DNA of 64,000 bases from a virus, in IMG/VR virus record IMGVR_UViG_3300021373_000005; one strand, given 5' to 3'. The translations under genes were made by a program, and so were the position numbers. The stretch's first letter is position 1. Every line of letters begins with the position of its first letter. Below are positions 3,298 through 40,391 of the stretch, one piece after another. The notes under the pieces were generated by a model, which saw nothing but the letters and a program-made list of their open reading frames with translations, had not been told where the DNA came from and did not search any database.

Positions 3298-3358
3298 CAT
3301 AATAAATAAAGGTATACATTGAACAATTTAAACCGCCTATCTGGGGAGAGTGAACCGA

Positions 3359-6300
3359 ATGGCAAATGATAAGAAATTTATAGTCAAGAATGGTCTCTTG
3401 ACACCGGAAAATGCTGTCATCGGCAGCAATACGGATACTGGTGAAAAACTCCAGGTCACCGGTGACACAGTCCTAACCCAAGGTACGCAAGGTACTCCGA
3501 CTTTAAAAGTTACTAATTCAGGTGGAGCTTCCGCTTCTACAATCGTTGCCCAATTTGAAGGTGATTCTGATTCACTCCAGATTCGCAATATTGGGACAGG
3601 CGATTATTCAATCACAAATCCTCAGCAAGGAAATAGTATTGAATTTTATGACGGTACCGCAGGTATTGTTATTAAATATGCAGGCTCAAATAAATTAGCA
3701 TTCACAAGTACAGGAACTGATTTTACAGGTCTTTCTAATACAACGATTGAAGGTAATCGTATTCTTACAACTGCAGATGAAGGTGCAGGTAATGGATTAG
3801 ATGCTGATACAGTTGATGGATTACAAGCAAGTCAATTCTTAAGATCCGATGTTGATGATACTGCCGCAGGTAATATAAACTTTTCACAAGATATTGATGT
3901 CGCAGGTTCTGCTCAAGTTGATGTTAACTTAACAGTTGATGGTCAAGCAGTTATTAAAGCTTTACTTGATGCACAAGCAAATGCTCAAGTCGCTGGTAAT
4001 TTAACGGTTAGTGGAGATCTTTTAGTTTCAGGTAATACGACAACTGTTAATACCGAAGAAATTCTACTTGCTGATAATATTATTACTCTTAATAGTAATT
4101 ACACAGGCTCAACTCCATCAGAAGATAGCGGTATTGAAATTGAGCGTGGTACATTAGCAAATCCAAAACTTGTTTGGAATGAATCTCAGGACTATTGGGA
4201 ACTACAAGTTAATGGTTCAGTACTTGGTCGAATTATTACAACAGCAGATGAAGGTTCAGGAAATGGATTTGATGCTGATACTGTTGACGGTTTAGAGGCA
4301 GAGCAATTCTTACGTAGTGATGCTGATGATACTGCTACAGGTAATATTACAATTGAAGGTGATCTTACAATTGGAGATGATTCAGGTCCTGCTCAAATTA
4401 TCTTTGACGGTAATGGAGTTAATCGTACTTTATATTCAGCAACAGGTGAAATTGGATTTTTAAACAATGCTGCTAACTGGGCGGCAAGATCTAATGCAAA
4501 TGGTGATTGGATTGTTGAACGAGATGTTTCAGCAGGTAGAGATGTAATTGCTACGAATGATGTTACAGCAACAAGTGGTGATGTAACTGCTGGTGATAGT
4601 ATTACAGCACAAAATAATATTACAGCAACGACAGGTAATATTGCTGCTTCAGCAGGAAGTGTAACAGCACAAACAAACGTAACAGCAGTTACAGGTAATG
4701 TTTCAGCAACAGCTGGTGACGTAACTGCAGGTGATGATGTCATTGCACAAAATGATGTCACAGCAACAACTGGTGATGTTTCGGCCACAGCAGGTAATGT
4801 AACTGCTGGCGACAGCATGACAGCTCAAAATGATATTACAGCTACAACGGGTGATATTACAGCTTCTGCTGGTGACGTCCAAGCAACAGTAGGAAATGTT
4901 AGAGCTGGTGAAGATGTATACGGTAAGAAATTTATCGATGTCAACGATGGAACCTATATTGTAAATCCAAATTCAAGCTCAACAATGCATGAAATTGGAA
5001 TTGATGATAATCTTTTCCATAACGGCGATACAGATACAAGATTAAGATTTGAAACTGACAATATACAATTAAGAACAGGCGGTTCCGATAGATTAGATAT
5101 TAATAATTCAAGAGTCCAATCTAACCTCGACATATATGCACCCAATGTTCGTATAAATGATTCACTTATTCATAACGGTGATACAGATACAAAAATTACT
5201 TTTGCTACTGACACTGTAGATATTGACACAGGCGGTTCAACAAGATTAACCGCGAATAACTCAGGAGTCACAATTGAAGGTGATCTTGATGTTAATGGAG
5301 ATATTACAGCAGTTAATGGTACATTCACAGGTGACCTTGCTGCTTCAAGATTTTTAGATGCTGATAACAATAACTATTATGCGGACCCTAACTCAACATC
5401 AGTAATGAATCGTATCGGCATTGACGATTACATTCAACATAACGGCGATACAAATACTTACTTTGGATTTAATGCTAACGATAATATTCAATTCTTTACT
5501 GATGCAACACAAAGAGTTGAAATCAATGGCACAAACTTTACAAGTACCGTTGATGGTATATTCCCTAATTTATATGCAGGAAGATATTACGATTTAAATA
5601 ACGCAACTTATTATTTAGACCCAGCAAGTAATTCAAGACTGAATGGTATTGCTCTTGTCGGAACAATTTACCACGACGGTGATACTGATACATATTTAAA
5701 CTTTAACGGTGCAAATAGTTTTGAAGTTGTCACAGGAAACGCTCAAAGATTATTAGTTAACAATACTTATGTGTTAGCAAATAACCAAATGCGTTCACCT
5801 ATTTACTACGATAACAATAATACAAATTATTATGGTAACTTTGCTTCTACATCGCAAATGTCTCAAATTGACATTGATTCGTATATTCGTCATCGCGGTG
5901 ATACAAATACTTATCTTGGATTTGATGCAAATGATAGTATTACATTCGTAACGGGTGGTGCTGAAAGAGTTAATATTACCGATGCAAATACAACATTCTT
6001 CCAACCTGTTATTGTTCAAGGTGATATTCAAGCAGACAGATTTGTTGATAGACAAAACACAGGTTATTATTTAAACCCTGCTGATACATCCATAGCTGCT
6101 ACATTAAACGGTAGAGTATTAATCGGTAATGTAACTGATTCCGCAAGATGGGATGATAATTCAGGAAACGGTGGTATTTCATTAATGCCACATGGTTCAT
6201 ATGCAGGAACACAAAATACTACAGTAGGAATTAGTGGTAACGTTTCTGGTGGTTATTCATTAATGTATTTGAATCTTATTGATTCTTCTTCTAACCCAAC

Positions 6301-9300
6301 AGGAAACGGTCAAAGATATATTCATTTCTATCATGATGGAACAGACGGTGGTTCTATTCGTGGTGATAGTTCAGGTAACTTATATCAAGTATTAAAGTCA
6401 GGAACCAATTGGGGATTCTGGACATCAGGATTTAGTGAAGCATTAATTGTTGATGATAGTGGTAATGTAATGGTTGCTTCCGGTACTTCACCTACTTATA
6501 CAGACGGTGGTGATAATACGGCTCTTACCACAACTCCTTCGACACCTAAACTACATGTTGGCGGTTCAATTTATCTAAATGGAAATAACGACGGTATTAT
6601 CTTTGGTCGTGGTACAGCATCCTTCCTGAAAGACGAAGAACTTGCCTTTGGTTGGGGTGGCGGTTGGTATATGCAAGATGGCACATACCTAAGAGTCAGA
6701 AATAATAAAACAATTTATTCTACAGGTGATGCTCACCTTAACAGATATTATGCATATCAGAATACAGCTTATTACCTTGACCCAGATGGTGACTCACAAT
6801 TAAATACAGTTGACATTGATGATTACATTCGTCATCGTGGTGATACAAATACTTTAATTGGTTTCTCAGGTAATGATACATTACTTTTCCAAACAAATGG
6901 TGTTAATCGTTTACAAATTAATAACGGTGCATTTAGGTCAAGAAATAATACAGTACAATTCTACTCAAGTGGAATTGAAATACAAAAACAAAGTAATGGC
7001 GGTGGTGTAGGACTTACAGTATCAGACCAAAACAGTGGAGAGCAACCAGGATTAAGTGGATTACAGCAAGGTTCTATTACATTCTGGCATGCTGATGGAG
7101 CTGTCACAACAGGCTCTAATGCCGCTTGGTATTTTAATTCTTCCGAAGCAATTACTCATTACGTATTTGGAACAAACAGCGGAGCAGCTGGTGGTAATCT
7201 TGTCCCAGTCGTTAACAACTCTGGTAGTTTAGGTAATTCAAGTTATCGTTGGGGTTCAATATACGCAGGAACAGGTGATTTCTCAGGTAATGTAACTGGT
7301 AATAATGCTTACTTCTATCGTTACTATGATAGGAATGATTCCACATATTACGCTGACCCAGCAAGTACTTCTTATCAACAGTTTATGAATATTAATGTTG
7401 GTAACGAAAACACAGGCGGTGCAAACTCAAGTACTAACGGATTGATGATGAGAGGTAATTACAATAGTAATACCTGGGCTCATAAATTCCATAAGTTTGA
7501 CCACGGTGGCGGAGTACCGATTTACTTATCAGAAACAATTGGTACAGCTGCTTGGAATCCAGTACAAAGATGGGGAACATATACAGGAAATGGATTTAAG
7601 TCGCAAATATTTGGTACTCTAAAAGTTGATACAAATATTCATACACCAATATTGTATGATTCAGATAACTCTGGATATTATGTAGATCCTGCCGGATCAT
7701 CAAGAATGAATACAATTACTCTTGATGGCAATGCAGTTGTATTAAGAGAACCTACAGGAACATTTGGTTCACTTGCTATTGATGGCGGCGGAAGAAATGG
7801 TTGGGAAGGATTCTCAATCGGTGACCGCATGGTATTCATGCATGATAATGCAAATAGAGTAGGTGTTTACAATGATGTAGAAAATGAATGGATTTGGTAC
7901 GCAGATAGAAATGCTCAGATGCGATTAATGTATAATGGCGCTGAACAAGCAAGAACAGAAAACGGATACTTCCTAGCACCTAACCAAATGCGTGCACCTA
8001 TTTACTACGATTCAAATAATACAGGCTATTACGTAGATGGTAATAATACGTCAAGATTCAATGCAGTTCAAGCATTAAGATATTACTTTAACCACGCAAC
8101 TACATACTACGCTGATGCAGCATCAGGTGATTATGGTTCAATGGAAGTTGGTGGTCAAAAGAATGGTTGGGCTGGTTATTCTATCGCAGGTCAATGGGTC
8201 TTAATGTCTCCAGGTGTTGACCGTGTTGGTATATACAATGATACTGATAACAAATGGCAGCAGCAGTGGTATAGAAACGCTGGTACATTGATGTACTATA
8301 ATGCTGTAGTCCAGGCAGAAACAAGAAGCGGTTACTTCCTCGCAAATAACCAAATGCGAGCACCAATCTATTATGATTCAAATGATTCAACATATTACTT
8401 AAACCCAGCAGCAGGTAATACAAACCGTGCATTAATGATTAACGGTAGAATATACCGTCAAGGTTTTGCTGGTGGTGATGGAAATAATAACAAACTATTA
8501 GAAACTCAAGACTATTCACATTGGATTTGGAACACTGCTACTGATTGGGGTATTTTCTGGGCAGGTAATGATAATCCATATCGTTCACACTTCAGTACAT
8601 CTAATCCTAATGAAATTGTATTCATAGGTAATGGAAACTTAAGAGCAAGTATTGACCTTGATAATGGTAATGCTCACTTTGTTGGTACTGTATCTGCTGG
8701 TAGTTTTGCACTTAATGGTGGAAATGAAAATATTGAAATTATTAAGTCATACGGTTCAGGTGGAGCTGACTTAGTACTATTTGATGGAACAGAATATTTT
8801 GATAAGCGTGTCATTAAAGCAATGGCACCTAACGAAAGTCCACTTACTACAACTACTTCAGAATATGTAAGAACAACAGACGGTCCTTTCGCAGGTTCTT
8901 ATGTATTACAAACATCTTCTTATAGAACATTCTATTCAGATTACATTCCTGTTGCTCCTGGTGAAGAATTATACGGTGAAATTTCTGTTAAGCGTATTTC
9001 AGGTTCAGGCGGTTTGGTTTATTATGGTATTGAAAGATTTGATAGTCAGAAGAGACCTATTGCTGGAAACACAGGTACAACATACTTCGTTGTAGGTGGA
9101 GCAAACTATACAGGTACATCTTGGAATACATATAGAAACCATACAACAATTCCAACATCTCATACTCCATATAATGGGTCTGACGGCGGAGGTGTTTATT
9201 ATGTAAGAATTCGTATCTTAATGAACTACAACTCTGGTGGTGCTTTAAGACAGTTTGCCGGAATCATGCTCAAACGTCGTAATGCTGAATCTAATTTATT

Positions 9301-12300
9301 AGTTGATGATTTACAAGTACTTGATGATGTGACAATCGGCGGAGATGCAACCATAACAGGTGACTTAACTGTCGATGATATTACGGCTGACGTTATTGAT
9401 GCAAGAAGATTTAGAGATAGAGATAATACTGGATATTATATCGACCCTAAAGATGGAAGTAATGTTGTAGGATCTTGGAACTGGAATAACGGTTCAATTG
9501 AAAATCTAAACAACCTTTCATTCAATGACCCAGGCCCTCAAGAAGGTATTCGTTGGAAAGGTGGTAATGAATGGAAGATTTATGAATCACCAGATAACTT
9601 AAGTTCTAACTCAGGCGGTAATTTACAATTCACATCAGGTAATGGCGCAGGTACTTATCAGATGAGATTGAATACGAGCGGTCGAATGGACGTTCGTGGG
9701 CAAATCAGAACACCTATTGTATATGACTTAAACGATACAGCCTGGTATGTAGATCCTCACTCAGGTTCAAGGTTCAAAGATTTAGAAATACAAGATACAA
9801 GAAGTTCAGATATCTTAACAGTATATAGAACAGGTTCAGCGCCAGGAAACTATACTGCAGCAAGGACAATTAACCAATACGGTAATCACTCTTGGGGTAT
9901 TGTTCATGAATTCAGAATTGGTGATAGGAGCTCACAAAGTGTACCTAGTGGTACTGACCGACCTTCTATTTTATTCTCAACTGGATATAATACAACAACT
10001 TGGTCAGTTGGTTTCGGTTATGTAGATAACGATTTTAGAATCAAACAAAATCACGGTCATATAAATCAATCTTGGGGTACTGAGAGATTTAGAATTAATA
10101 CAAGCGGTGAAGTATTCATTGGAAATAGCTTATGGGGTGCTAACGCATACTTCAACCGTTATTATGACAGAAACAATACTGGATATTATGCTGACCCAGC
10201 AAGTACATCTGTATTTAACGCAATGGTATTTAATGGCGACGTTGATTTCAACGGTGGTGCTAATGCGATTAATATTACAAGTTCTGATATTCGTTCAGAC
10301 GGTAATTCAACTTGGACAGGAAACCCAGGTGCAGGTGTAGGTAAGATTCAAATGCACTCTAACCGTTGGTACATTGTATCTAACGGAAACTCAAATAGAA
10401 TTGTTCAGTTTAGACAAAATGGTTCTGATAGGTCTTATATTGCGAATGATGGTAGATTAATCGGTGTTGGTGGTACAGCTTCTCAGGATTTCAGAGCTCC
10501 AATCTTCTACGATACAAATGATACTAGTTATTATGCAAACCCAGCAAGTGATTCAAGATTTAGTACATTAACACTTCGTGGTAATAGATTAGGATTTGTT
10601 AATACAGCGTTTGATGCAGAGATACGAGTAACTGATAATAACCCAGACGGTACAGGTGCAACATTTGTATTCTGGGGTGACCAAGTAGAATATAATGCTG
10701 AAGTAGCAACCGAAGTATTCAGAGCAACACGACATATGCGTGCTCCTGTATATTATGATTTAAATAATGCTTCATACTACGGTGACTTTGGTGGTACATC
10801 TTACATGAACGATGTAAGAGCTAATATTGTTTACGATAGAAACAACACTGCTTACTATGTACATAATTCGAGCGGTGATGCTCGAATGAGAAATGTTAGA
10901 ACAAATAACATTCAAGTTGAAAACGGCGCAACAATCACATCTGTAAATAATAATGGTAGAATTTATCTTGGTGGTAATTTACATATTGATGCTCAAAATG
11001 GTTTAGACATTTATATGAACTATTACTCGGGTAGAAGGTTCAGATCTTTCTCACCTGGTCAATACGAATCATTCAGAGTTGATACTGACCGTATTACATA
11101 CGCATTTGCTCAATTCAGAACTCCATTAATTTACGATTATAATAATACTGGTTACTATCTTGATATGAATAACAACTCAAGGTTTAACGACCTTATGTTG
11201 AGAGGATTATACGTAACCACGCGTTATCATTCAGGTTCTGACTTTGTTAATGGTACTCTTGTAAGAACAAGTATTCCTGCGACCGCAACTAACGGAGCTT
11301 CATTCGTACTTGAAGCAACAGGTAAATCTTATTCAGGTGATCCACCGTTTATGTTTACCGCACAAGGTTACTTATATGCTAATACTATTATTAATCATTC
11401 TGGTCAACATATTGGTAAGGCCGGATTTAGTACAATGCGTATATTTGAAAACGGTGGAGTATTATGTTTCTGGTGGCCTCGCGTATCTTATTGGAACTCC
11501 TTCTCTGTTCATGTAAGAAATGCAAACGGTGATGATAGAAACTTAGTCACAAGCGTTTCAAATTCATCTTTACCAGGATACTCGAAAGGTGTGACAACAA
11601 CAATGCGTACTACCGCAATGTACAATGTTAACATTGGTACAGGTGATATGTATGCACAACGTTACTACGATAGCAACAATACATTCTATTACGGAGACTT
11701 TGCCTCTAGTTCTAGGATGAACGAAGTAAACATTTACGGAAGTTTAAGAAATCAAGGTGGAACTCCGCATTACTTCTATACAGGTGCTGGAAACTTAAGA
11801 GGTTATATACGAGCCACAGATTCTAATGATTCTCACTTTGAATTTGCTACATCAGGTGGAGAGGACTTCATCTTCCGTGATGGTGGATTTGGAGGTTCTT
11901 GGAATCAGATTATTAGAGGTAATGGTCATGTATTAGTAGCATCAAGATTTGATACTCCTATTATGTATGATAGGAATAATACAGGTTATTATTCTGACCC
12001 AGCAAGTACTTCGCGTTTCAACACAATGCGAACAAACAGAATTTATCCTGCTTATGATAACGCAGGAGATATGTATTTAGATTGGCCTTCAGGTAATTAC
12101 GGTTCAATCCAAACAAACGGTGGCGGTAAAGGCGGCTGGGAAGGTTATTCAATCAATGGTCGTTATGTATTCATGTCGTCAAATAACAACGAATGTGGTA
12201 TTTACAACGACATTGATAATGAATGGATGACAATCTGGCGTCGTAACGGCAGAACTGAAATATTCCATAACGGTACTTGGGAAGAATACGCTCAGCCCGG

Positions 12301-14449
12301 TTATATGCAGGCTCGTGGTTCTTACCGTGCTCCAGTCTTCTATGATTCAAATGATACTGGATATTATTACGATCCTAACAGTACAAGTAATGCGGCAGGA
12401 AGACAAAGAGGTGGTACATTATACGGACCTAACACATCTTGGGGTAGATATCTCGCAGTTGGTACTAATGGTCGATATAGTAACGAAGCTTCGGTTGCTG
12501 CTACAAATGGTAACTTACACCTTGACGCAAGGTCAGGATTTGGAACATATATTAACTGGTATGTAGGTGGTACTACTTACATTAACGGTACACTGCAAGT
12601 TAACTTTATTTACGATAGAGATAATAATTCATATTACTGGAATGGCGCAAGCACATCTCATATGAATGACCTTCGTGTCAATATTCTATATGATCGTAAT
12701 GATACTGCTTATTACTTTGGTTCAAGCTCAGGTGATGCAAGAGCAAGAACAATGCGTGCTTGGAACTTCTACGCTGATGATTGGTTCCGAAACTATAACT
12801 CAGGTGAAGGTTTGTATAACCAAGCAACAGCGATGCATTGGTATTCAGATTCATCTTCAAGATTTAGATTGTATTCTACATCAAGTACTTCACAAATCTT
12901 ATTTACAACTTCAGGTAATAACGCTCGTGGTTATGCATATGCTGATAACAGTAATAATATCGGTTTCCTCAATGCAGGCGGTGGTTGGGCATTAAGAACA
13001 AACTACGGTACGACTGAAGTATACGGTAATGCATATGCAAATGATATGCGTGCTTATATATTCTATGACCGTGCAAATACAGGTTATTTCTGTGACCCAG
13101 CAGGAAGAAGTAGATTATCAAGTATTGACTACGGTAATGGTTCTTATTACTTCAGAAGTGGTTCTTGGGGATGGAGACATCAGACTCCTTCAGGATATAT
13201 TGAATTTGGACCTGCTAACGGTTCACACGCTCATATCTATACTGATAGGTCTAACTTCTATTATAATGTTAATGATTCATATCTTAACGGTAGAAGAATA
13301 TTACACGAAAATCGTTGGATAAGTAATAAGTACTTCAGTAGTGATGGTACAATTTATGGAACCATCTTTAGAGATGCAAACAACGGTGGTTATTACGGAG
13401 ACTTTGCGTCAACATCAAGATTCAATCAAATGGAAATGATTGGGCGAATGGTTGTTGGTGGTAGATTTGATTATAATGCATATAACTCAACATCATCAAC
13501 AAGATTACATTTCGGTGGTGGTAATAGTGATGCAAATGGTAATTATTACATAGGTACAAACAGAGAGAACTATAACGGTAACTATAATAAACTTGATTTA
13601 AGGTGGCATACAGGTATTCGTATAGGTGCTCAACAAGTTTATGGTGGTGTCAGATTCTATAATAATGAAGACCTAAGTTCACTCAGAGTTCATATTGAAG
13701 CAGGTTCTGGTTATACAAGATTAAATACTTGGACTGAAATCGGCGGTGGCGGTGTAGGTATCTACGATGGATATAACGGCGCGCATTGGTTCCCAAATAA
13801 CCAAACATCTTATGGTTCATGGGCTTCATACGGAAACAGAAGTGGATGGTATGGTACTGCTTATCCTCAAGCAGGATACGATCCACATGACATGTGGGAT
13901 GGTTCAGGTAATGGTGGTTGGTACTTACAAGGTCTAGGACGTTGGGTACTTTATCATAACCGTAGTAGAAACTGTATGGGTGTTGCTTCATCAAGTACTG
14001 TGTCCGGTTATCGTATGAGAGTTAACGGTTCACTTTACTGTAATGGTAACGTGGTTGCTTACTCTGACCGTCGTAATAAAGAAAATATCATCACAATTGA
14101 TAATGCTCTTGATAAAGTATTACAATTGCGTGGTGTTTATTATAACAGAAAACAATCAAAAATTGATGACCGTGACGATCTTTACAAAGGACGTCAATTA
14201 GGTATGATTGCTCAGGAAGTTCAAGAAATTGTTCCTGAGGTTGTATCTTATGCTGAAGAAATTGACCAATACGGACTTGATTATCCGAAGATGGTTGGTT
14301 TACTTGTTGAAGGTATTAAGGACCAACATGCAATTGTAGAGAGTCAAAAAGAAACAATAAATAATATGCAGAAAGATATTGACATGTTGAAAGAAATGGT
14401 ATATAATATGCAATCAATAATGGAGAATAGTAAGAATGGCACTAATTAA
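3359..14449 (+). CDS. Giant (~3,696 aa) long tail fibre/adhesin with C-terminal peptidase S74 intramolecular chaperone
   Basis: ATG 3359 follows GGGGAGAG. Many YYxDPxSTS-type repeats. C-terminus AY|SDRRNKENIITIDNALDKVLQLRGVYY...GMIAQEV...LDYPKMVGLLVEGIK (Ser codon at 14063) followed by a coiled coil is the S74 signature. Confidence 0.85.
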   Translation: MANDKKFIVKNGLLTPENAVIGSNTDTGEKLQVTGDTVLTQGTQGTPTLKVTNSGGASASTIVAQFEGDSDSLQIRNIGTGDYSITNPQQGNSIEFYDGTAGIVIKYAGSNKLAFTSTGTDFTGLSNTTIEGNRILTTADEGAGNGLDADTVDGLQASQFLRSDVDDTAAGNINFSQDIDVAGSAQVDVNLTVDGQAVIKALLDAQANAQVAGNLTVSGDLLVSGNTTTVNTEEILLADNIITLNSNYTGSTPSEDSGIEIERGTLANPKLVWNESQDYWELQVNGSVLGRIITTADEGSGNGFDADTVDGLEAEQFLRSDADDTATGNITIEGDLTIGDDSGPAQIIFDGNGVNRTLYSATGEIGFLNNAANWAARSNANGDWIVERDVSAGRDVIATNDVTATSGDVTAGDSITAQNNITATTGNIAASAGSVTAQTNVTAVTGNVSATAGDVTAGDDVIAQNDVTATTGDVSATAGNVTAGDSMTAQNDITATTGDITASAGDVQATVGNVRAGEDVYGKKFIDVNDGTYIVNPNSSSTMHEIGIDDNLFHNGDTDTRLRFETDNIQLRTGGSDRLDINNSRVQSNLDIYAPNVRINDSLIHNGDTDTKITFATDTVDIDTGGSTRLTANNSGVTIEGDLDVNGDITAVNGTFTGDLAASRFLDADNNNYYADPNSTSVMNRIGIDDYIQHNGDTNTYFGFNANDNIQFFTDATQRVEINGTNFTSTVDGIFPNLYAGRYYDLNNATYYLDPASNSRLNGIALVGTIYHDGDTDTYLNFNGANSFEVVTGNAQRLLVNNTYVLANNQMRSPIYYDNNNTNYYGNFASTSQMSQIDIDSYIRHRGDTNTYLGFDANDSITFVTGGAERVNITDANTTFFQPVIVQGDIQADRFVDRQNTGYYLNPADTSIAATLNGRVLIGNVTDSARWDDNSGNGGISLMPHGSYAGTQNTTVGISGNVSGGYSLMYLNLIDSSSNPTGNGQRYIHFYHDGTDGGSIRGDSSGNLYQVLKSGTNWGFWTSGFSEALIVDDSGNVMVASGTSPTYTDGGDNTALTTTPSTPKLHVGGSIYLNGNNDGIIFGRGTASFLKDEELAFGWGGGWYMQDGTYLRVRNNKTIYSTGDAHLNRYYAYQNTAYYLDPDGDSQLNTVDIDDYIRHRGDTNTLIGFSGNDTLLFQTNGVNRLQINNGAFRSRNNTVQFYSSGIEIQKQSNGGGVGLTVSDQNSGEQPGLSGLQQGSITFWHADGAVTTGSNAAWYFNSSEAITHYVFGTNSGAAGGNLVPVVNNSGSLGNSSYRWGSIYAGTGDFSGNVTGNNAYFYRYYDRNDSTYYADPASTSYQQFMNINVGNENTGGANSSTNGLMMRGNYNSNTWAHKFHKFDHGGGVPIYLSETIGTAAWNPVQRWGTYTGNGFKSQIFGTLKVDTNIHTPILYDSDNSGYYVDPAGSSRMNTITLDGNAVVLREPTGTFGSLAIDGGGRNGWEGFSIGDRMVFMHDNANRVGVYNDVENEWIWYADRNAQMRLMYNGAEQARTENGYFLAPNQMRAPIYYDSNNTGYYVDGNNTSRFNAVQALRYYFNHATTYYADAASGDYGSMEVGGQKNGWAGYSIAGQWVLMSPGVDRVGIYNDTDNKWQQQWYRNAGTLMYYNAVVQAETRSGYFLANNQMRAPIYYDSNDSTYYLNPAAGNTNRALMINGRIYRQGFAGGDGNNNKLLETQDYSHWIWNTATDWGIFWAGNDNPYRSHFSTSNPNEIVFIGNGNLRASIDLDNGNAHFVGTVSAGSFALNGGNENIEIIKSYGSGGADLVLFDGTEYFDKRVIKAMAPNESPLTTTTSEYVRTTDGPFAGSYVLQTSSYRTFYSDYIPVAPGEELYGEISVKRISGSGGLVYYGIERFDSQKRPIAGNTGTTYFVVGGANYTGTSWNTYRNHTTIPTSHTPYNGSDGGGVYYVRIRILMNYNSGGALRQFAGIMLKRRNAESNLLVDDLQVLDDVTIGGDATITGDLTVDDITADVIDARRFRDRDNTGYYIDPKDGSNVVGSWNWNNGSIENLNNLSFNDPGPQEGIRWKGGNEWKIYESPDNLSSNSGGNLQFTSGNGAGTYQMRLNTSGRMDVRGQIRTPIVYDLNDTAWYVDPHSGSRFKDLEIQDTRSSDILTVYRTGSAPGNYTAARTINQYGNHSWGIVHEFRIGDRSSQSVPSGTDRPSILFSTGYNTTTWSVGFGYVDNDFRIKQNHGHINQSWGTERFRINTSGEVFIGNSLWGANAYFNRYYDRNNTGYYADPASTSVFNAMVFNGDVDFNGGANAINITSSDIRSDGNSTWTGNPGAGVGKIQMHSNRWYIVSNGNSNRIVQFRQNGSDRSYIANDGRLIGVGGTASQDFRAPIFYDTNDTSYYANPASDSRFSTLTLRGNRLGFVNTAFDAEIRVTDNNPDGTGATFVFWGDQVEYNAEVATEVFRATRHMRAPVYYDLNNASYYGDFGGTSYMNDVRANIVYDRNNTAYYVHNSSGDARMRNVRTNNIQVENGATITSVNNNGRIYLGGNLHIDAQNGLDIYMNYYSGRRFRSFSPGQYESFRVDTDRITYAFAQFRTPLIYDYNNTGYYLDMNNNSRFNDLMLRGLYVTTRYHSGSDFVNGTLVRTSIPATATNGASFVLEATGKSYSGDPPFMFTAQGYLYANTIINHSGQHIGKAGFSTMRIFENGGVLCFWWPRVSYWNSFSVHVRNANGDDRNLVTSVSNSSLPGYSKGVTTTMRTTAMYNVNIGTGDMYAQRYYDSNNTFYYGDFASSSRMNEVNIYGSLRNQGGTPHYFYTGAGNLRGYIRATDSNDSHFEFATSGGEDFIFRDGGFGGSWNQIIRGNGHVLVASRFDTPIMYDRNNTGYYSDPASTSRFNTMRTNRIYPAYDNAGDMYLDWPSGNYGSIQTNGGGKGGWEGYSINGRYVFMSSNNNECGIYNDIDNEWMTIWRRNGRTEIFHNGTWEEYAQPGYMQARGSYRAPVFYDSNDTGYYYDPNSTSNAAGRQRGGTLYGPNTSWGRYLAVGTNGRYSNEASVAATNGNLHLDARSGFGTYINWYVGGTTYINGTLQVNFIYDRDNNSYYWNGASTSHMNDLRVNILYDRNDTAYYFGSSSGDARARTMRAWNFYADDWFRNYNSGEGLYNQATAMHWYSDSSSRFRLYSTSSTSQILFTTSGNNARGYAYADNSNNIGFLNAGGGWALRTNYGTTEVYGNAYANDMRAYIFYDRANTGYFCDPAGRSRLSSIDYGNGSYYFRSGSWGWRHQTPSGYIEFGPANGSHAHIYTDRSNFYYNVNDSYLNGRRILHENRWISNKYFSSDGTIYGTIFRDANNGGYYGDFASTSRFNQMEMIGRMVVGGRFDYNAYNSTSSTRLHFGGGNSDANGNYYIGTNRENYNGNYNKLDLRWHTGIRIGAQQVYGGVRFYNNEDLSSLRVHIEAGSGYTRLNTWTEIGGGGVGIYDGYNGAHWFPNNQTSYGSWASYGNRSGWYGTAYPQAGYDPHDMWDGSGNGGWYLQGLGRWVLYHNRSRNCMGVASSSTVSGYRMRVNGSLYCNGNVVAYSDRRNKENIITIDNALDKVLQLRGVYYNRKQSKIDDRDDLYKGRQLGMIAQEVQEIVPEVVSYAEEIDQYGLDYPKMVGLLVEGIKDQHAIVESQKETINNMQKDIDMLKEMVYNMQSIMENSKNGTN

Positions 14450-27903: not shown

Positions 27904-29898
27904 ATGGCTTTTTCCGTAAGTCCTTCCGTAATTGTTCGAGAGGTGGACGCATCAGCATCGGTTCCTGCCATCGCAACACCACCTGCAGCAATGGCTGGTG
28001 TGTTTAGATGGGGTCCTGTAGGTGAAGCAATTCTTGTTTCTTCAGAGAATGAATTAGTACAACGTTTTGGTGAACCCAATGACGATAACTATGAAACATT
28101 CTTTGTAGCTGCAGACTATCTTTCATACGCAAACGCATTATGGGTTGCCCGTGCAGACAATGGAGCAGTTACTGCTTCCTCAAGTTCTGTTTCTTACCAT
28201 GCAAATGGTGACATTAACGTCACAACATCTGGTTCATTTGATGCATTATATCCAGGATCCTTGGGTAATTCATTAGAAGTTGCATATGTTAAAGATACAA
28301 ACTTTTCAACAGATATAATTGCTGCAGCAGAAATTCCAACTACACGAATCACAGGTGCAAACTCTGAGGTTATAGCAACCGCGCAAACAATTACATTTAA
28401 CAGTAACACAATTTCATTTGAGGTAATTCCATCAAACGCAATTGATTTAGCAAATACTGAACCGGTTGTAGCAGGTGATATACTTGTTATTGGTAACGAT
28501 TCAGTTGGCTATCAAGAAATTGTCCTTGACAGTATTACTGAAACTACAAGAGCTGCCGATGGTCAAGAAACTGCAAACACTGCATTAATTACTTCGCATG
28601 CTTATGACATAACTTTAGCAAGTCCTTACAGATTAACTGAAACATCTTTAAATAAGTTAAAAATCAGTAGAAAGTGGGCATACTCAAAATCATTTATAAC
28701 TGCTCCAAGTACAGGTAATTATCATATCGCAGTTATTGACGAAGATGGTTTAATTAGTGGAGATGCTGGAACATTATTAGAAATATATTCTGATGTATCA
28801 ACATCCTCAACTGCAAAACTTCCTGATGGTCGTACCAACTACTATAAAGAAGTTATTGAACAACAATCAGCTTGGGTTAAAGTTGCTAATACAACTCATT
28901 TTGAAGCTCAAACAGCGCAATATGAATCATTAGGTGTTAACGTAGGCGGTCTAACCGGCGACTTAGCTGATAACAGCGCAAACGTTGGTACAGATGGTAG
29001 AACAGAATCTACAGCAACACTTGCTGACTTAGCATCTGCTTATGATTTATTCAAATCTTCAAACGAAATTGATATATCATTCGTATTAGGTGGTAAATCA
29101 GACGATGCAGGTAATCTTGCTACATACTTGATTTCAAATATTGCTGATTACAGAAAAGATGCAGTTGCATTTGTTTCCCCTTCTAAAGCAGACGTTGTTG
29201 ATGAATCAAAATCAGAAACTAAATTAGCAAACATTATTGCATTTAAGAACAGCCTCCCAGCTTCTTCTTACTATGTAATGGATTCTGGTTACAAGTATAG
29301 ATACGATAGATATAACGATGTATATAGATATACTCCACTTAACGGTGATATCGCAGGTCTTTCTTCAAGAGTTGAACCTTTTGAATCTCCTGCCGGTTTC
29401 CGTAAGGGTGTAATCAAGAATGTTGTTAAGCTTGCTTTCAATCCTAACAAAGCTCAAAGAGACCAATTGTATAGTTCAAATATTAATCCAGTTATGGCTC
29501 AGGTAGGACGAGGAATTGTTCTATTCGGTGATAAAACAGGATTAGGTGCTAACTCTGCATTTGATAGTATTAATGTTAGAAGATTGTTTATAGCGGTTGA
29601 AAAGGCAATTGCCAATGCAGCCGAAGGATTCTTATTTGAATTGAACGATGAGTTTACTCAATCACAATTCAAAGGAATCGTTGAACCATTCTTAAGAGAC
29701 ATTCAAGGTAAAAGAGGAATTGTTGATTTTAGAGTAGTTTCTGACACAACTGTTAATACACCTTCGGTTATTGACCAAGGTAAGTTCAGAGCTAATATCT
29801 TTATTAAACCTGCACGTTCAATTAATGTTATCGAATTAACTTTCGTGGCAACAAGAAGCGGTGTAGAGTTTGATGAAATCGTTGGGTCACTAACATAA
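27904..29898 (+). CDS. g18: Tail sheath protein gp18
   Basis: SPSVIVREVD, GVFRWGP, PAGFRKG, FGDKT, FDSINVRRLF, FIKPARSINVIELTFVATRSGVEF. Confidence 0.97.
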   Translation: MAFSVSPSVIVREVDASASVPAIATPPAAMAGVFRWGPVGEAILVSSENELVQRFGEPNDDNYETFFVAADYLSYANALWVARADNGAVTASSSSVSYHANGDINVTTSGSFDALYPGSLGNSLEVAYVKDTNFSTDIIAAAEIPTTRITGANSEVIATAQTITFNSNTISFEVIPSNAIDLANTEPVVAGDILVIGNDSVGYQEIVLDSITETTRAADGQETANTALITSHAYDITLASPYRLTETSLNKLKISRKWAYSKSFITAPSTGNYHIAVIDEDGLISGDAGTLLEIYSDVSTSSTAKLPDGRTNYYKEVIEQQSAWVKVANTTHFEAQTAQYESLGVNVGGLTGDLADNSANVGTDGRTESTATLADLASAYDLFKSSNEIDISFVLGGKSDDAGNLATYLISNIADYRKDAVAFVSPSKADVVDESKSETKLANIIAFKNSLPASSYYVMDSGYKYRYDRYNDVYRYTPLNGDIAGLSSRVEPFESPAGFRKGVIKNVVKLAFNPNKAQRDQLYSSNINPVMAQVGRGIVLFGDKTGLGANSAFDSINVRRLFIAVEKAIANAAEGFLFELNDEFTQSQFKGIVEPFLRDIQGKRGIVDFRVVSDTTVNTPSVIDQGKFRANIFIKPARSINVIELTFVATRSGVEFDEIVGSLT

Positions 29899-30481: not shown

Positions 30482-32002
30482 TTGAAAATTTTTGGCTTTG
30501 ATATAAAGAGGGCAGAGGAGGAGACCACTTTACCGGTTTCTTTTGCCGAACCCTCTAATGATGATGGAGCGATTACGGTTGGTAATGCTCTAGGTGGTTT
30601 TTATAATACGATACTTGATATGGAAGGTTCCGCTAAAACGGAATCTGAGTTAATTACAAGATATCGTCACATGTCAATGCAGCCTGAGGTTTCTCAGGCA
30701 ATTGATGACATTGTGAATGAGGCAATTAGTGTTGATACAAATGATAGAGTTGTTGAAATCTCTTTAGGAGAAACAGTTTTATCAGATAAAGTAAAGAAGT
30801 CGGTTATTAAAGAATTTGATAACATACTTGCATTATTTGATTTTACAAACAATGCATATGATATGTTTTTCAAGTTCTACGTTGACGGAAGATTAAATTA
30901 TCATATTATTATTGACCCTGAGGATGTAAAGAAAGGTGTTTTAGAATTAAGATATGTTGACCCTCGTAAACTAAAATTGATACGAGAAGTAGACAAGAAG
31001 AGTAAAGATAAGCATTCAGGAATACCTGTTAAGAAAGTTAAAAATGAGTATTATATGTATTCTGAAAACGGGTTTCAGAATGCGGGTACAGGAGCCGGTG
31101 GTACTTCAAGTACAACAGGTGTAAAGATTGCGAAGGACTCTATAGCAAGAGTAACTTCAGGATTGATGAATGAGAATAACAGTTTAGTATTATCTCATTT
31201 ACATCCAGCAGGTAAAGCTTTAAATCAGCTGAGAATGTTGGAAGATGCTGTTGTAATATACACGTTAACAAGAGCACCAGAAAGAAGAATTTTTTATATT
31301 GATGTAGGTAACTTGCCAAAGAATAAGGCAGAGCAATATCTTAGAGATATGATGGCTCGACATAAGAACAAGTTACAGTACAATTCAGAATCAGGACAGA
31401 TTACTGATTCTCGTAAGATGCTAACAATGACTGAGGACTTTTGGTTCCCTCGTCGTGGTGGAGAAAGGTCAACTGAAGTTGATACCCTCGCAGGAGGTAA
31501 TGCACCAGGATTGAGTGGTAACGAAAACTTAGAGTATTTTCAACGCAAATTATATAAAGCGTTGAAAGTACCTTTATCGCGTTTAGAACCAGAGGCAATG
31601 GCAACCTTCGGTAGAACATCAGAGATTACTCGAGATGAACTGAAGTTTGGTAAATTTATTAGAAGAATTCGTGCACGTTTCTCATGGATATTCAATATGG
31701 TATTAGAGAAACAATTAATTCTAAAAGGAATTTTAACACCTGAGGAATTTAACGAAATCCGTAATGACATACGTTATGATTTTGTTAAAGATAATTATTT
31801 TGAGGAATTAAAGGAAGCTGAGATTCTGAGAGAAAGATTGAATACTTTAAGGGATATATCCGATTACACAGGAAAGTATTTCTCTCATCAGTGGATTACT
31901 CAAAACATTCTGCAAATGTCTGAAGAAGATGCACAGAAAATGGAAGATGAAATTGCAGATGAAAAGGCTCAAGGTGGACATGCAGAAGATGATGCATATT
32001 AA
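30482..32002 (+). CDS. g20: Portal protein gp20
   Basis: TTG start after AGGTGA; FYVDGR, YVDPRK, RAPERRIFYIDVGNLPK.KAEQYL, EDFWFPRRGG, ITRDELKF. Confidence 0.97.
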   Translation: MKIFGFDIKRAEEETTLPVSFAEPSNDDGAITVGNALGGFYNTILDMEGSAKTESELITRYRHMSMQPEVSQAIDDIVNEAISVDTNDRVVEISLGETVLSDKVKKSVIKEFDNILALFDFTNNAYDMFFKFYVDGRLNYHIIIDPEDVKKGVLELRYVDPRKLKLIREVDKKSKDKHSGIPVKKVKNEYYMYSENGFQNAGTGAGGTSSTTGVKIAKDSIARVTSGLMNENNSLVLSHLHPAGKALNQLRMLEDAVVIYTLTRAPERRIFYIDVGNLPKNKAEQYLRDMMARHKNKLQYNSESGQITDSRKMLTMTEDFWFPRRGGERSTEVDTLAGGNAPGLSGNENLEYFQRKLYKALKVPLSRLEPEAMATFGRTSEITRDELKFGKFIRRIRARFSWIFNMVLEKQLILKGILTPEEFNEIRNDIRYDFVKDNYFEELKEAEILRERLNTLRDISDYTGKYFSHQWITQNILQMSEEDAQKMEDEIADEKAQGGHAEDDAY

Positions 32003-33930: not shown

Positions 33931-34914
33931 ATGGCAAACGTAGAAGAAAAATTCGTTGCTGATGATGGAGTCTCAATGGTCCCTGATGCTGTAACACCTG
34001 AAGGTGGAGAAGGTAAAAAGGACAAGCTGAAGAAGACAACAACTGACGAGCCAAAAGGAGCAGCTGACGGTAAGAAAGTAGTTCCTGGTCAAACAGATGC
34101 AGGCAAGCCTGTACCTACTGCTGAAGAAACTGAAGTTGACGCTGAAGTTGAAACAGTAGAGGAAGTAGTTGTAGAATCTTCAATTGAGTCAATCATTGAA
34201 GGCGAAGATTTATCCGAAGAATTCAAAGGCAAGATTAGTCTTGTATTTGAAGCCGCATTAAACGAAGAAGTAAATAAAAGAACTGAGACAATTCGTGAAG
34301 AATTAACTAAGTCTTTAGACGAAGCATTGGAAGAAGCAGTAACTGAGAAATTAGATACCATTTCTGAGAATGTTGATAAGTATTTAGATTACGTTGTATC
34401 TGAGTGGATGTCTGAGAATGAAATCGCAGTCGAATCTGGAATTAAGGTTGAGATGGCGGAATCATTAATGTCAGGTCTTAAGAACTTATTCGTAGAACAT
34501 AATGTTACTGTTTCTGAAGAATCAGTTGACGTTGTGTCTAACTTAGAAGGACAAGTTTCTGAATTGGAAGGAAAAGCAAATGACCTCGTAAATGAGAACA
34601 TTGAATTACAGAAAGAAATTCAAACTTTCAAAGCAGAACAAAAATTTGACGAACTTGCAGAAGGTTTATCTGAGAATCAGGTAGAGCGTTTGAAAGTATT
34701 GTCTGAAAAGCTTGATATTGAAGATTTAGAAGCTTATGCAGAAAATCTTCAAGTAATTAAGGAGTCTTTCTTCAGCGACAAACCTATTGTAGAAAATAAG
34801 GATGTTCAAGAAGAAAATGACGAAATTATTCTAGAAGAACAGGAAGTAACTAAACCAGCTTCTGATTACACTTCTATTAATGCTTTAGTTGAAGCTTTCA
34901 ACACTAAGAAGTAG
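33931..34914 (+). CDS. g22: Prohead core scaffold gp22
   Basis: Acidic coiled coil with LSEEFK.K...VFEAAL, VDKYLDYVV.EW, GIK.E.AES..SGLK.LF.EH. Confidence 0.93.
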   Translation: MANVEEKFVADDGVSMVPDAVTPEGGEGKKDKLKKTTTDEPKGAADGKKVVPGQTDAGKPVPTAEETEVDAEVETVEEVVVESSIESIIEGEDLSEEFKGKISLVFEAALNEEVNKRTETIREELTKSLDEALEEAVTEKLDTISENVDKYLDYVVSEWMSENEIAVESGIKVEMAESLMSGLKNLFVEHNVTVSEESVDVVSNLEGQVSELEGKANDLVNENIELQKEIQTFKAEQKFDELAEGLSENQVERLKVLSEKLDIEDLEAYAENLQVIKESFFSDKPIVENKDVQEENDEIILEEQEVTKPASDYTSINALVEAFNTKK

Positions 34915-34969: not shown

Positions 34970-36280
34970 ATGGATAACTATACAAGACTAGTGGAAAAGT
35001 GGGAGCCAATTTTAGCGCACGAATCTTTTTCACCAATTAGTGATTCTCATAGAAGAGCAGTTACAGCTACTATTCTTGAGAACACAGAAAAAGCACTAGC
35101 AGAAACTGGTGACTTATCTGCTAACATGACTAGCTTGCTTTCTGAAGCACCTACTAATGACGTCGGTACAACCGGTGGATTTACAGGTGGTTCTGCTGCT
35201 GCAGGTCCTGGTGCAGGTTATGACCCAATTCTTATCTCATTGGTAAGACGTGCTGTTCCTAATATGATCGCATACGATATCTGTGGTGTTCAGCCTATGA
35301 CTGGTCCTACAGGATTAATCTTCGCAATGCGCGCAAGATATGGTTCACAAGGTGGTGCAGAAGCAATGTACAACGAAGCTGATACAGACTTCGCTGGTAC
35401 AGGTACTCACGCTAATACTTTACCTGGTGGTTCTGTAACTACTGGTACAGGTATGACAACTGCAGCTGCTGAAGCCTTAGGCGACGGTGGTGGCACAAAC
35501 TATGCAGAAATGGCATTCTCTATCGAGAAAGTAACTGTTGCTGCTAAGACTCGTGCTTTAAAAGCAGAATACACAACTGAGCTTGCTCAGGATCTTAAAG
35601 CTGTTCACGGCCTAGACGCAGAAACTGAATTAGCTAATATTCTTCAAACTGAAATCTTAACAGAAATCAACCGTGAAGTTATTAGAACAATTTATGACGT
35701 TGCTGTTGTTGGTGCTGCTGGCGCTGCTACTCCGGGTACATTCGACTTAGACGTTGATGCAAACGGAAGATGGTCTGTTGAGAAGTTCAAAGGTTTAATG
35801 TTCCAAATCGAGCAAGAAGCTAACGCAATTGCTAAAGGAACAAGAAGAGGAAAAGGTAACGTTGTTATTTGTTCTTCTGACGTAGCCTCTGCTTTACAAA
35901 TGGCTGGTGTGTTGGATTACACTCCTGCTCTAAACTCTAACTCTCTAGAAGTTGATGACACAGGTAATACTTTTGCTGGTGTTCTTAACGGTAGATTCAG
36001 AGTATACGTTGACCCATTCGCAGGTGCTAACTACTTAGTAGTTGGTTACAAGGGTTCATCTGCATTTGATGCAGGTTTATTCTACTGCCCATACGTACCA
36101 TTACAAATGGTTCGTGCGGTTGGTGAAAACAGCTTCCAACCAAAAATTGGATTTAAGACACGTTACGGAATGGTTTCAAACCCATTTGCTCAAGGTGACG
36201 TTTCTAGCCAAGGTCTTGGAGCACTTACTGCTGATCTTAACAAGTACTACAGAAAAGTTACAATCGCTAACTTATTCTAA
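34970..36280 (+). CDS. g23: Major capsid protein gp23
   Basis: DPILISLVRRA.PN.IAYD.CGVQPMTGPTGLIFAMR, KTRALKAEYT.ELAQDLKAVHGLDAE.EL, FQPKIGFKTRYG. Likely gp21 cleavage at LLSE|A (E59). Confidence 0.98.
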   Translation: MDNYTRLVEKWEPILAHESFSPISDSHRRAVTATILENTEKALAETGDLSANMTSLLSEAPTNDVGTTGGFTGGSAAAGPGAGYDPILISLVRRAVPNMIAYDICGVQPMTGPTGLIFAMRARYGSQGGAEAMYNEADTDFAGTGTHANTLPGGSVTTGTGMTTAAAEALGDGGGTNYAEMAFSIEKVTVAAKTRALKAEYTTELAQDLKAVHGLDAETELANILQTEILTEINREVIRTIYDVAVVGAAGAATPGTFDLDVDANGRWSVEKFKGLMFQIEQEANAIAKGTRRGKGNVVICSSDVASALQMAGVLDYTPALNSNSLEVDDTGNTFAGVLNGRFRVYVDPFAGANYLVVGYKGSSAFDAGLFYCPYVPLQMVRAVGENSFQPKIGFKTRYGMVSNPFAQGDVSSQGLGALTADLNKYYRKVTIANLF

Positions 36281-36325: not shown

Positions 36326-36355
36326 AGAGGAATCCTTCGGGGTTCCTCTTTTTTT
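36326..36355 (+). terminator. Rho-independent terminator with cUUCGg tetraloop after g23
   Basis: AGAGGAATCC-TTCG-GGGTTCCTCT followed by a T run. Confidence 0.9.
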
Positions 36356-36671
36356 ATTCCCAAATAAAATTAGTCCAAGGTTCATAACAACCAGAAACTC
36401 CAATTGCTGAATTGTCACAACCTCTTGCATCATCCCATAGTTCTAAGTTAACTTTATCAAACATCTCTTTTGTAAGTTTAACCATAGGAACATTTTCCAT
36501 AAAGATTGCTGATTCGTAATCAATCGACATAGGCTTAACACTAATATGATTTTCTCCAAACTCCTTAATCATACCTACGTATCTTTTACCATCTTTAATA
36601 AACTGACACTGTTCAAAAGTATCTCCGAAAGTATCATTACCAAGTTTAGTCCATTTTTCAAATAATTTCAT
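36354..36671 (-). CDS. Hypothetical protein
   Basis: 105 aa, coupled to the upstream ORF. Confidence 0.6.
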   Translation of the reverse strand: MKLFEKWTKLGNDTFGDTFEQCQFIKDGKRYVGMIKEFGENHISVKPMSIDYESAIFMENVPMVKLTKEMFDKVNLELWDDARGCDNSAIGVSGCYEPWTNFIWE

Positions 36672-36970
36672 TAAGCAACCTCTCTATAACCAGCAGCTTT
36701 ACCATAAAAGCCAAGTTTTTCTAATTTTAAAACAATTTCGTTAAAAGCCGCACCTTCAGAATCTTGCGGATAGATACCAACTGTCATTGGGTCATCAATG
36801 AATAATTGACATTGTTCCCAAGTTGGGTTTTGATTGATATAATCGTTGACGATTTTCTTTCCTTTTTCAAAAAGATTCTCATCTTTTGTTCTAACCTCAA
36901 AATCAACGATTTCGTAACCGTCCATTGTTAATGATGGTTCCGGTTGGTTTCCTAATATTCTTATTTCCAT
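36671..36970 (-). CDS. Hypothetical protein
   Basis: AGGAG RBS; downstream of the promoter at 37000-37028. Confidence 0.65.
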   Translation of the reverse strand: MEIRILGNQPEPSLTMDGYEIVDFEVRTKDENLFEKGKKIVNDYINQNPTWEQCQLFIDDPMTVGIYPQDSEGAAFNEIVLKLEKLGFYGKAAGYREVA

Positions 36971-36999: not shown

Positions 37000-37028
37000 A
37001 TTATACTCTATCTCACAACGAATGTCAA
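37000..37028 (-). promoter_or_regulatory. Sigma70-type early promoter
   Basis: TTGACA-N17-TATAAT on the - strand. Confidence 0.85.
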
Positions 37029-37401: not shown

Positions 37402-37535
37402 ACCATTGCTGTCCACAATAAATTCAAGCAACCTTTAGTAAAAGCTCCTTCATACCAAAGTATTAACATTGCTAATATTGTAATTGCTGTAAAGCACCAA
37501 ACGATTTCTCTTATTAATTGTATCATCTCTTTCAT
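37398..37535 (-). CDS. 45-aa membrane micro-protein (not in ORF track)
   Basis: Hand translation MKEMIQLIREIVWCFTAITILAMLILWYEGAFTKGCLNLLWTAMV; starts 4 nt after the tRNA-Glu CCA. Confidence 0.5.
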   Translation of the reverse strand: MKEMIQLIREIVWCFTAITILAMLILWYEGAFTKGCLNLLWTAMV

Positions 37536-37539
37536 AATC

Positions 37540-37614
37540 TGGTAGCCCGTAGGAGAATCGAACTCCTGTTGCATGGATGAAAACCATGTGTCCTAACCAC
37601 TAGACGAACGGGCC
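37540..37614 (-). tRNA. tRNA-Glu(UUC)
   Basis: GGCCCGT/ACGGGCT acceptor stem, CATGG-TTTTCAT-CCATG anticodon arm, GTTCGATTC T-loop, encoded CCA. Confidence 0.95.
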
Positions 37615-37618
37615 GAAT

Positions 37619-38280
37619 AAAAAAACGGCGGACCTTCCATATACGCCTATCAAAGGTATGTTAAGATCCGCCTAGGTATTGAACTTCAGTGTCACAATCG
37701 TCATTTGGTCTTACTGCCTTTCTAAAGGACCTGATGACTAGTCAGGGGTTTCAAACTACCTTGGTGATTAGAATACTTTGTTAACGTAATTCGTTAAATA
37801 GTGTAGAATTGTTAATCGTAGTATTCTAATCTAAAAAACTTAAAATTCGTAGGTACGTCTCTCGGACTTATCTGTTACTTGTTAACTCCAGTCTCGGAGG
37901 TAGCAAACTACCTCTATACCTAAAGGAGAAAGATCCTAGACTGCCGTCTTGTGTCGGTTTGGGTGCAAACCTAAACCCTATCTCTTTCACAGTGCGCGGC
38001 TCGCAGCCGACTTCAGTATCGAGCGTTTCTTCATACACGGAGACGCTTTAATACCCACTCTATTGATTTCGTTCTGACCCGTATAATTACATGCATTCCT
38101 ACATCGGCCTTCTCATTACTCTGTGAATATATCTGTTACGATGGGATATATTCAACAGCTTCAGCTGCCGGTCGGGTTGTCCACCTATATATTAGAGCCT
38201 TCCGATTGATAAGATCTTCTACTCGACTCAGGTTCTCTACTCACCGATTGTCTCTGTCGGTGGGGTGTTTCCCTCAATAT
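37619..38280 (-). ncRNA. Candidate large structured non-coding RNA (~660 nt)
   Basis: No ORF of 60 aa or more in any frame; begins just downstream of a perfect sigma70 promoter; many hairpins; ends in a GC-rich stem plus U7 immediately before tRNA-Glu. Confidence 0.65.
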
Positions 38281-38286
38281 GATACT

Positions 38287-38315
38287 ATTATACTATAGTT
38301 TCATTATGATGTCAA
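38287..38315 (-). promoter_or_regulatory. Sigma70-type early promoter driving the candidate ncRNA and tRNA-Glu
   Basis: TTGACA-tcataatgaaactatag-TATAAT. Confidence 0.9.
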
Positions 38316-38334
38316 TAGTTTTTGTGAAAAAAGT

Positions 38335-40304: not shown

Positions 40305-40391
40305 TGGTACCGCGAGTCGGACTTGAACCGACAAGGCCGTTAAGCCGAGGGATTTTAAGTCCCTTGTGTTTACCAATTTCACCACCGCGGC
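40305..40391 (-). tRNA. tRNA-Leu(UAA)
   Basis: GCCGCGG acceptor 5' strand, AGGGA-CTTAAAA-TCCCT anticodon arm, long variable arm, GGTTCAAGTCC T-arm, encoded CCA; 87 nt. Confidence 0.95.

Follow-up and report, generated by a model that had tools for sequence, protein, structure and literature searches.

We have found, in the genome of an uncultured marine phage, a minus-strand non-coding transcription unit that consists of a sigma-70 promoter, a 436-nt core RNA (module 1), a second RNA of 215 nt (module 2) and a tRNA-Glu gene. The core has a GNRA-capped three-way junction as well as a pseudoknot and two closing helices of long range, and many of its unpaired nucleotides are invariant. Both modules belong to RNA families absent from Rfam 15, and no copies turned up outside marine phage contigs. 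We have little doubt that the unit encodes a genuine structured RNA whose family is new and uncatalogued.

Background

The window, by which we mean the whole 64,000-nt stretch of DNA that was analyzed (IMG/VR record IMGVR_UViG_3300021373_000005), belongs to the genome of an uncultured marine myophage that is T4-like and of the pelagimyophage type. The RNA unit lies in the minus-strand early region behind the major head protein gene, one of four structural genes listed in Table 1. The nearest cultured relatives share no more than 65% major-capsid identity and are the Sinorhizobium phages phiM12 and phiN3, the OM43 phage Melnitz and cyanophages. Other parts of the window carry curli-type genes that fit those published for pelagimyophages, and no non-coding RNA was reported in the paper that describes them (PMC7029224).

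Several other features of the window were recorded. A single ORF of 3699 aa (3350-14449, plus strand) is situated amid the structural genes of the T4-like phage. A second perfect (12/12) sigma-70 promoter is found at 37000-37028 on the minus strand, 1.3 kb downstream of the RNA and ahead of small minus-strand ORFs (36354-36970). A tRNA-Leu(UAA) gene (40305-40391, minus strand) occurs about 2 kb upstream of the RNA, and the same tRNA-Leu lies approximately 1.5-2.6 kb upstream in 11 other contexts.

Methods

RNA positions are numbered such that position p corresponds to window position 38281-p. A viral record that is 95% identical over the region already displayed compensated changes. Further homologs were gathered by gp23 synteny, with four DNA patterns taken from conserved blocks, and by one metagenome scan. 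This yielded 71 sequences that are distinct in their first 450 nt, three of them chance matches, and thus approximately 70 distinct homologs, from which a cut-off of less than 97% identity left 39 representatives. The pattern by which most members were retrieved includes the -10 box and the 5' motif, so the invariance of these two elements is partly by construction, and family breadth may be underestimated owing to this manner of gathering homologs. Members found by other routes also carry both elements.

Because the variable arms misalign, RNAalifold gave poor structures when run on the complete MAFFT alignment or on domain 2 (the Pa/Pb/Pc domain). Helices were therefore worked out domain by domain and tested by pair counts, by covariance-model realignment and by alignment-free duplex tests. 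A covariance model of the Pa/Pb/Pc domain served to realign 66 copies (the model-aligned set A4). A loose 3-bp covariation scan was discarded as too noisy.

Results

Distribution of homologs

Every real homolog comes from marine viral or metagenome contigs, including those of TARA and GOS. When 185,579 species genomes of bacteria and archaea were scanned with a pattern, three matches were returned, all by chance, and a BLAST search with the region and a divergent homolog against 50,697 GenBank phages returned tRNA matches only. Among more distant T4-like phages, 77 gp23-syntenic loci were searched with model R1 and no copy was detected. Locus L006, a close relative with 85% gp23 identity, has no RNA copy within 4.5 kb behind gp23 (flank 7318-11846), whereas L015, with a gp23 identity of only 65%, has one. 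Such a patchy distribution would fit a module that has been gained, lost or transferred.

Two separable modules

An earlier, sequence-only reading of this DNA had proposed one structured RNA of approximately 660 nt. That proposal was not borne out, in that the stretch is made up of two evolutionarily separable modules, each of which is found alone elsewhere. An intrinsic terminator directly follows RNA position ~436 in six lineages (L107, L295, L225, L243, L271 and L260), and in L107 a new promoter occurs after the module 1 terminator. Conversely, L303, L304 and L306 carry the 3' 215 nt alone, with its own -10 box before it and tRNA-Glu after it. Since each module also stands alone in other lineages, the 660 nt of the window are best described as two separable RNAs under one promoter. 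Locus L219, where the RNA starts near 2024 on the plus strand, is a natural deletion variant in which module 2 is fused directly to the initial ~165 nt of module 1, the whole central core is missing and hemC follows. The flanking protein genes, including those upstream, differ between loci.

Table 1 Features of the RNA unit and its surroundings (window coordinates unless a locus is named)
Feature	Coordinates	Strand	RNA positions	Remarks
Sigma-70 promoter TTGACA-N17-TATAAT	38287..38315	-		12/12 match; transcript start ~38280
Module 1, core RNA	37845..38280	-	1-436	at least 16 helices; ~70 distinct homologs
PK1 pseudoknot	38182..38267	-	14-17/96-99	encloses P2 and P3/P3a
P2	38242-38262		19-24/34-39	hairpin 19-39
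P3			52-56/82-86	P3/P3a hairpin 52-86
P3a			65-67/75-77	loop CUUAUCA
Three-way junction domain Pa/Pb/Pc	38078..38176	-		
Pa			105-108/200-203	
Pb			111-114/173-176	
Pc hairpin			177-181/186-190	GGAA tetraloop
V3 insert hairpin	38121-38158		123-160	clade-specific
P_LR long-range helix, 5' strand	38038..38058	-	223-243	partner 37849-37864
P_LR, 3' strand	37849..37864	-	417-432	helix closes 3' half of core
P7h hairpin	38015..38037	-	244-248/262-266	nearly invariant 13-nt loop GAAGAAACGCUCG
V5	37997-38009		272-284	
P_J long-range helix	37872..37992	-	289-292/406-409	encloses Pj with Pk, Pl, and arm Pm/Pn
Pj junction helix			297-301/347-351	
Pk hairpin	37956-37977		304-325	
Pl hairpin			332-343	GGCA loop
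Pm			353-356/392-395	arm Pm/Pn spans 353-395
Pn	37897-37914		366-383	
Module 2	37621..37836	-	445-660	~215 nt
Module 2 rod hairpin	37766-37831	-		12 bp
Module 2 four-way junction	about 37675-37760	-		closed by 9-bp helix
Module 2 terminal hairpin and U7	37627-37672	-		interior conserved, stem covarying
tRNA-Glu (UUC)	37540-37614	-		ARAGORN, Rfam; 5 nt past U7 run
ORF-free stretch	37439-38334			896 nt; no wider gap in window between ORFs of at least 60 aa
Tail sheath gene	27904-29898			
Portal gene	30482-32002			
Scaffold gene	33931-34914			
Major head protein gene	34970-36280			
hemC	L083:1082-1906	+		
hemC	L100:1373-2212	+		
hemC	L088:1426-2268	-		

Covariation in module 1

Homolog collection with covariation analysis had been named in the sequence-only reading as a check on the structure, and across the ~70 homologs it revealed many compensatory changes. 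PK1 occurs in three complementary states (CACC/GGUG, GGCC/GGUC and UACU/AGUA), and both P2 and P3 display two-sided changes between clades. In the model-aligned set, 92% of the Pa/Pb/Pc cells are paired, a share that falls to 30-51% once the partners are shifted by one to three columns. Two-sided changes affect 10 of the 12 pairs of this domain, and Pb is 100% paired with all four of its pairs covarying.

The 3' half of the core was assessed on the plain MAFFT alignment, which was not fitted to any structure, and for its two long-range helices by permutation. In P_LR the strands cannot be aligned column by column, so the helix was tested alignment-free by duplex energy; the mean was -16.1 kcal/mol for cognate strands versus -10.4 kcal/mol for non-cognate strands, none of 2000 permutations reached the cognate mean, and fully compensated examples occur in three clades. 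For P_J, eight distinct fully complementary 4-mer pairs were found and none of 5000 permutations matched the observed pairing. On the MAFFT alignment, P7h is paired in 97.9% of cells and changes on both sides in four of its five pairs. Taken over the inner end of P_LR, P7h, Pj, Pk and Pm, the 21 pairs are 89.8% paired versus 33-49% when slid, 17 of them change on both sides, and none of 500 shuffles reached the observed score. Invariant unpaired blocks lie between helices that are swapped, lengthened or deleted in the alignment. A "twin-box" feature, meaning two short boxes that match each other within every RNA while differing between homologs, is absent: among the 39 aligned sequences no pair of 4-column blocks was at least 90% identical yet variable.

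The stems that had been picked out from the single sequence are all present, and they correspond to P2, the V3 insert hairpin (38124-38154), V5, Pk, Pn, the module 2 rod and the terminal hairpin, which are conserved or covarying in homologs. The same reading had noticed a 10-mer that occurs twice (37752 and 37904) and had suggested that it allows alternative pairing. Both copies are there; the alternative pairing is not conserved, because the first copy is absent from the 95%-identical relative.

Module 2 and its terminal hairpin

For module 2, RNAalifold on 19 distinct sequences produced 48 pairs, of which 22 are compensatory and very few are broken. The terminal stem is followed by U7 on the minus strand, just as had been described from the letters, and because of this U-run the hairpin doubles as a terminator in the lineage of the window. 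In L211 the terminal hairpin has no U-run and a separate terminator lies behind it.

Promoter, strand and coding potential

The promoter claimed at the outset is indeed perfect (Table 1). The -35 box was absent from all search patterns, yet all aligned homologs retain it. Conservation of the RNA sequence begins approximately 7 nt past the -10 box. A preference for the minus strand, also put forward earlier, agrees with the promoter, with the terminators and with an excess of G-U over A-C in the conserved pairs (94 versus 32 cells when read on the minus strand). One hairpin had been said to fold better on the plus strand. Single-sequence folding does favor that strand (z = -5.8, versus -2.4 for the minus strand), but this is misleading as to the strand of the RNA, given the G-U excess.

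The region falls in what had been called the longest ORF-free stretch of the window, and with a cut-off of 60 aa this holds (Table 1). Within 37619-38280 the longest ORF is 56 aa. No ORF is conserved among the 39 representatives, the remaining ORFs differ in position and frame, and 12 of the 39 have no ORF of at least 50 aa on either strand. That the region is a structured non-coding RNA is thus upheld, with covariation across homologs as the decisive evidence and with no ORF conservation found. The GC content is 55% at 37981-38040, as had been noted, compared with 42% in the region as a whole and a window average of 36%.

Neighboring tRNA-Glu and hemC genes

The tRNA-Glu gene adjoins the structured stretch, in agreement with the sequence-only reading, and it must be co-transcribed with the RNA since there is no promoter between the U7 run and the tRNA. 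Among the contexts scanned, tRNA-Glu directly follows the RNA unit in 17, and it follows module 2 in most sequences inspected. In 29 of the contexts scanned, the start of hemC (porphobilinogen deaminase) lies 60-100 nt behind the RNA; its identity was confirmed by Pfam (PF01379 at E = 4e-58, and PF03900). The order in L088 is RNA, tRNA-Glu, hemC, and the window itself has no hemC. Tetrapyrrole synthesis by the C5 route starts from Glu-tRNA and employs HemC at a later step, for which reason the association of RNA, tRNA-Glu and hemC may have meaning.

Two GAA triplets open the 13-nt loop of P7h (window 38028-38032, RNA positions 249-253), and the invariant GAAA of this loop is complementary to U33-C36 in the anticodon loop of tRNA-Glu(UUC), although at 4 nt this match is too short to serve as evidence. 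Overall complementarity between the RNA and tRNA-Glu was no better than with shuffled tRNA.

Searches against known RNA classes

An Rfam search had been another check named in the sequence-only reading, and Rfam 15 (4227 families) holds no match to the stretch, which supports a new class over a known one. Only tRNAs were found in the window at the gathering score and in a 1.1-kb region at E<=10. Ten diverse homologs searched at E<=1 gave only tRNAs and, in L295, a glutamine riboswitch aptamer (RF01739, 60.9 bits; L295:561-613, plus strand) that lies downstream of the RNA, just past the module 1 terminator. Membership in GOLLD (RF01998) or ROOL (RF03087), which had been raised as a possibility, can be set aside, since no covariance-model match to either was obtained at the gathering score, at E<=10, or at E<=1 in the ten homologs.

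Group I and group II introns, RNase P RNA and tmRNA were likewise rejected, with no Rfam match and with only tRNAs found by ARAGORN. For group I introns and RNase P, the RNA furthermore starts at a promoter, has no flanking exons and has a helix order unlike P1-P9 or P1-P18. The T-box and riboswitch classes were rejected on the absence of an Rfam match and of conserved alternative pairing, and on the existence of free-standing copies with their own terminators.

Discussion

There is a likeness in layout to the species 1 and 2 RNAs of T4 (rnaC and rnaD), which belong to the T4 tRNA cluster. These are stable structured RNAs, co-transcribed with tRNAs and released by tRNA-processing enzymes; they are tRNA-like and ~120-140 nt long. 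Module 2 with its tRNA-Glu is arranged in the same way, and the comparison is one of layout. The modules are larger, at 215 nt for module 2 and 436 nt for module 1, and BLAST of the region against GenBank phages, T4 relatives included, gave a tRNA match only.

T-box and riboswitch leaders resemble the unit in that a terminator-like hairpin and genes dependent on read-through lie downstream of them, and one conserved loop here contains a Glu codon followed by a purine. The RNA described here differs in being much larger, and its codon is located in a terminal loop instead of an internal specifier loop. Neither a conserved antiterminator nor an NCCA-binding bulge came to light, and many members are free-standing genes.

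GOLLD and ROOL are alike in kind without being a homologous family: they too exceed 400 nt, have many covarying helices, are borne by phages or prophages and often lie near tRNA genes, and cryo-EM has shown both to form RNA-only multimers (PMC12286853). They differ in helix architecture and in hosts and habitat, as the present RNA belongs to marine T4-like myophages and consists of two separable modules. The study of Fremin et al. 2023 shares with ours the IMG/VR source and a covariation approach to phage intergenic regions, but its structured-RNA candidates are 29-151 nt long, so that they could include no more than fragments of our RNA, which is not described there as a whole (PMC10690425). 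Literature searches found no description of the RNA.

With somewhat better than even confidence, resting on anatomy and analogy, we take the unit to produce an abundant, early, trans-acting folded RNA rather than a leader. A gene product acting in trans is favored because free-standing copies have their own terminators and unrelated neighbors, and because the RNA is large. Unmodified host RNA polymerase would transcribe the unit strongly and early in infection, and the terminal hairpin with U7 would end or protect most transcripts. Read-through would supply the tRNA and, where present, hemC, and an RNase P cut at the 5' end of the tRNA would free the RNA. The mature RNAs would be stable and compact and would act in trans, presumably through their conserved unpaired nucleotides, either by attaching to a macromolecule of the host or phage or, by analogy with ROOL and GOLLD, by self-assembly. 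A catalytic role would also be compatible with this scheme.

The main rival is a cis-acting leader or attenuator that senses, for example, tRNA-Glu or a metabolite of the tetrapyrrole pathway and thereby sets read-through of the hairpin and U7 into tRNA-Glu and/or hemC. It would account for the recurrent position of the RNA directly upstream of these genes (17 and 29 contexts, respectively) with no promoter between, for the 5-nt spacing between U7 and tRNA-Glu in the window, for the gene order in L088 and for the conserved interior of the terminal hairpin, which is unusual for a plain terminator; the complementarity of the P7h-loop GAAA to U33-C36 would also fit. We nevertheless regard this reading as unlikely. 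At 436 plus 215 nt the RNAs are several times the size of known riboswitch or T-box leaders, and they match none of the Rfam models for these classes. Six lineages end module 1 in a strong terminator that is followed by unrelated genes and a new promoter, and hemC is missing from the window. Complementarity to tRNA-Glu as a whole does not exceed that of shuffled controls, and the alternative pairing expected of such a switch was not found in conserved form.

The proposed trans-acting RNA has a special case in which module 1 is a new large ribozyme, either self-processing or acting on another RNA. Bacterial RNAs of such size and complexity are often catalytic, as in RNase P and the group I and II introns, and with more than 400 nt, a pseudoknot, multi-helix junctions, a GNRA tetraloop and invariant unpaired blocks, module 1 would not look out of place among them. 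No match to an Rfam ribozyme family, no exon context and no conserved cleavage-site signature were found, and we consider catalysis quite unlikely. We would give a still slimmer chance to the idea that module 1 is a large RNA class tied to Glu-tRNA and tetrapyrrole metabolism, whether as a ribozyme or as a tRNA-Glu-binding regulator, in which the GAA loop docks on the anticodon and governs the expression or use of tRNA-Glu and hemC.

Finally, a variable early region beside tRNA genes, in which ORFs of up to 56 aa can be found in single sequences, could be thought a relic: the remains of a tRNA array, of an intron or of a mobile element, or else a series of short protein-coding ORFs. The structure is under strong purifying selection, with more than 40 pairs showing compensatory changes, no tRNA-like or intron match appeared at E<=10, and it is the promoter that is conserved, not the position or frame of any ORF. 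The probability of a relic is negligible, the covariation having effectively refuted this reading.

Conclusions

To our knowledge, well-supported bacterial or phage RNAs of more than 400 nt are rare, and almost all earlier classes of this kind that we know of are ribozymes, ribonucleoprotein scaffolds or, recently, self-assembling RNA cages. The family described here resides in abundant ocean phages of the pelagimyophage type, with a perfect host-type promoter and a repeated linkage to tRNA-Glu and hemC. Its helix map, module boundaries and natural minimal forms (module 1 alone, module 2 alone and the deletion variant) make structural and biochemical tests feasible. If docking on tRNA-Glu were true, T-box-like logic would have been invented independently in marine phages. 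Large RNA genes such as this one are missed by current phage annotation and by RNA catalogues.
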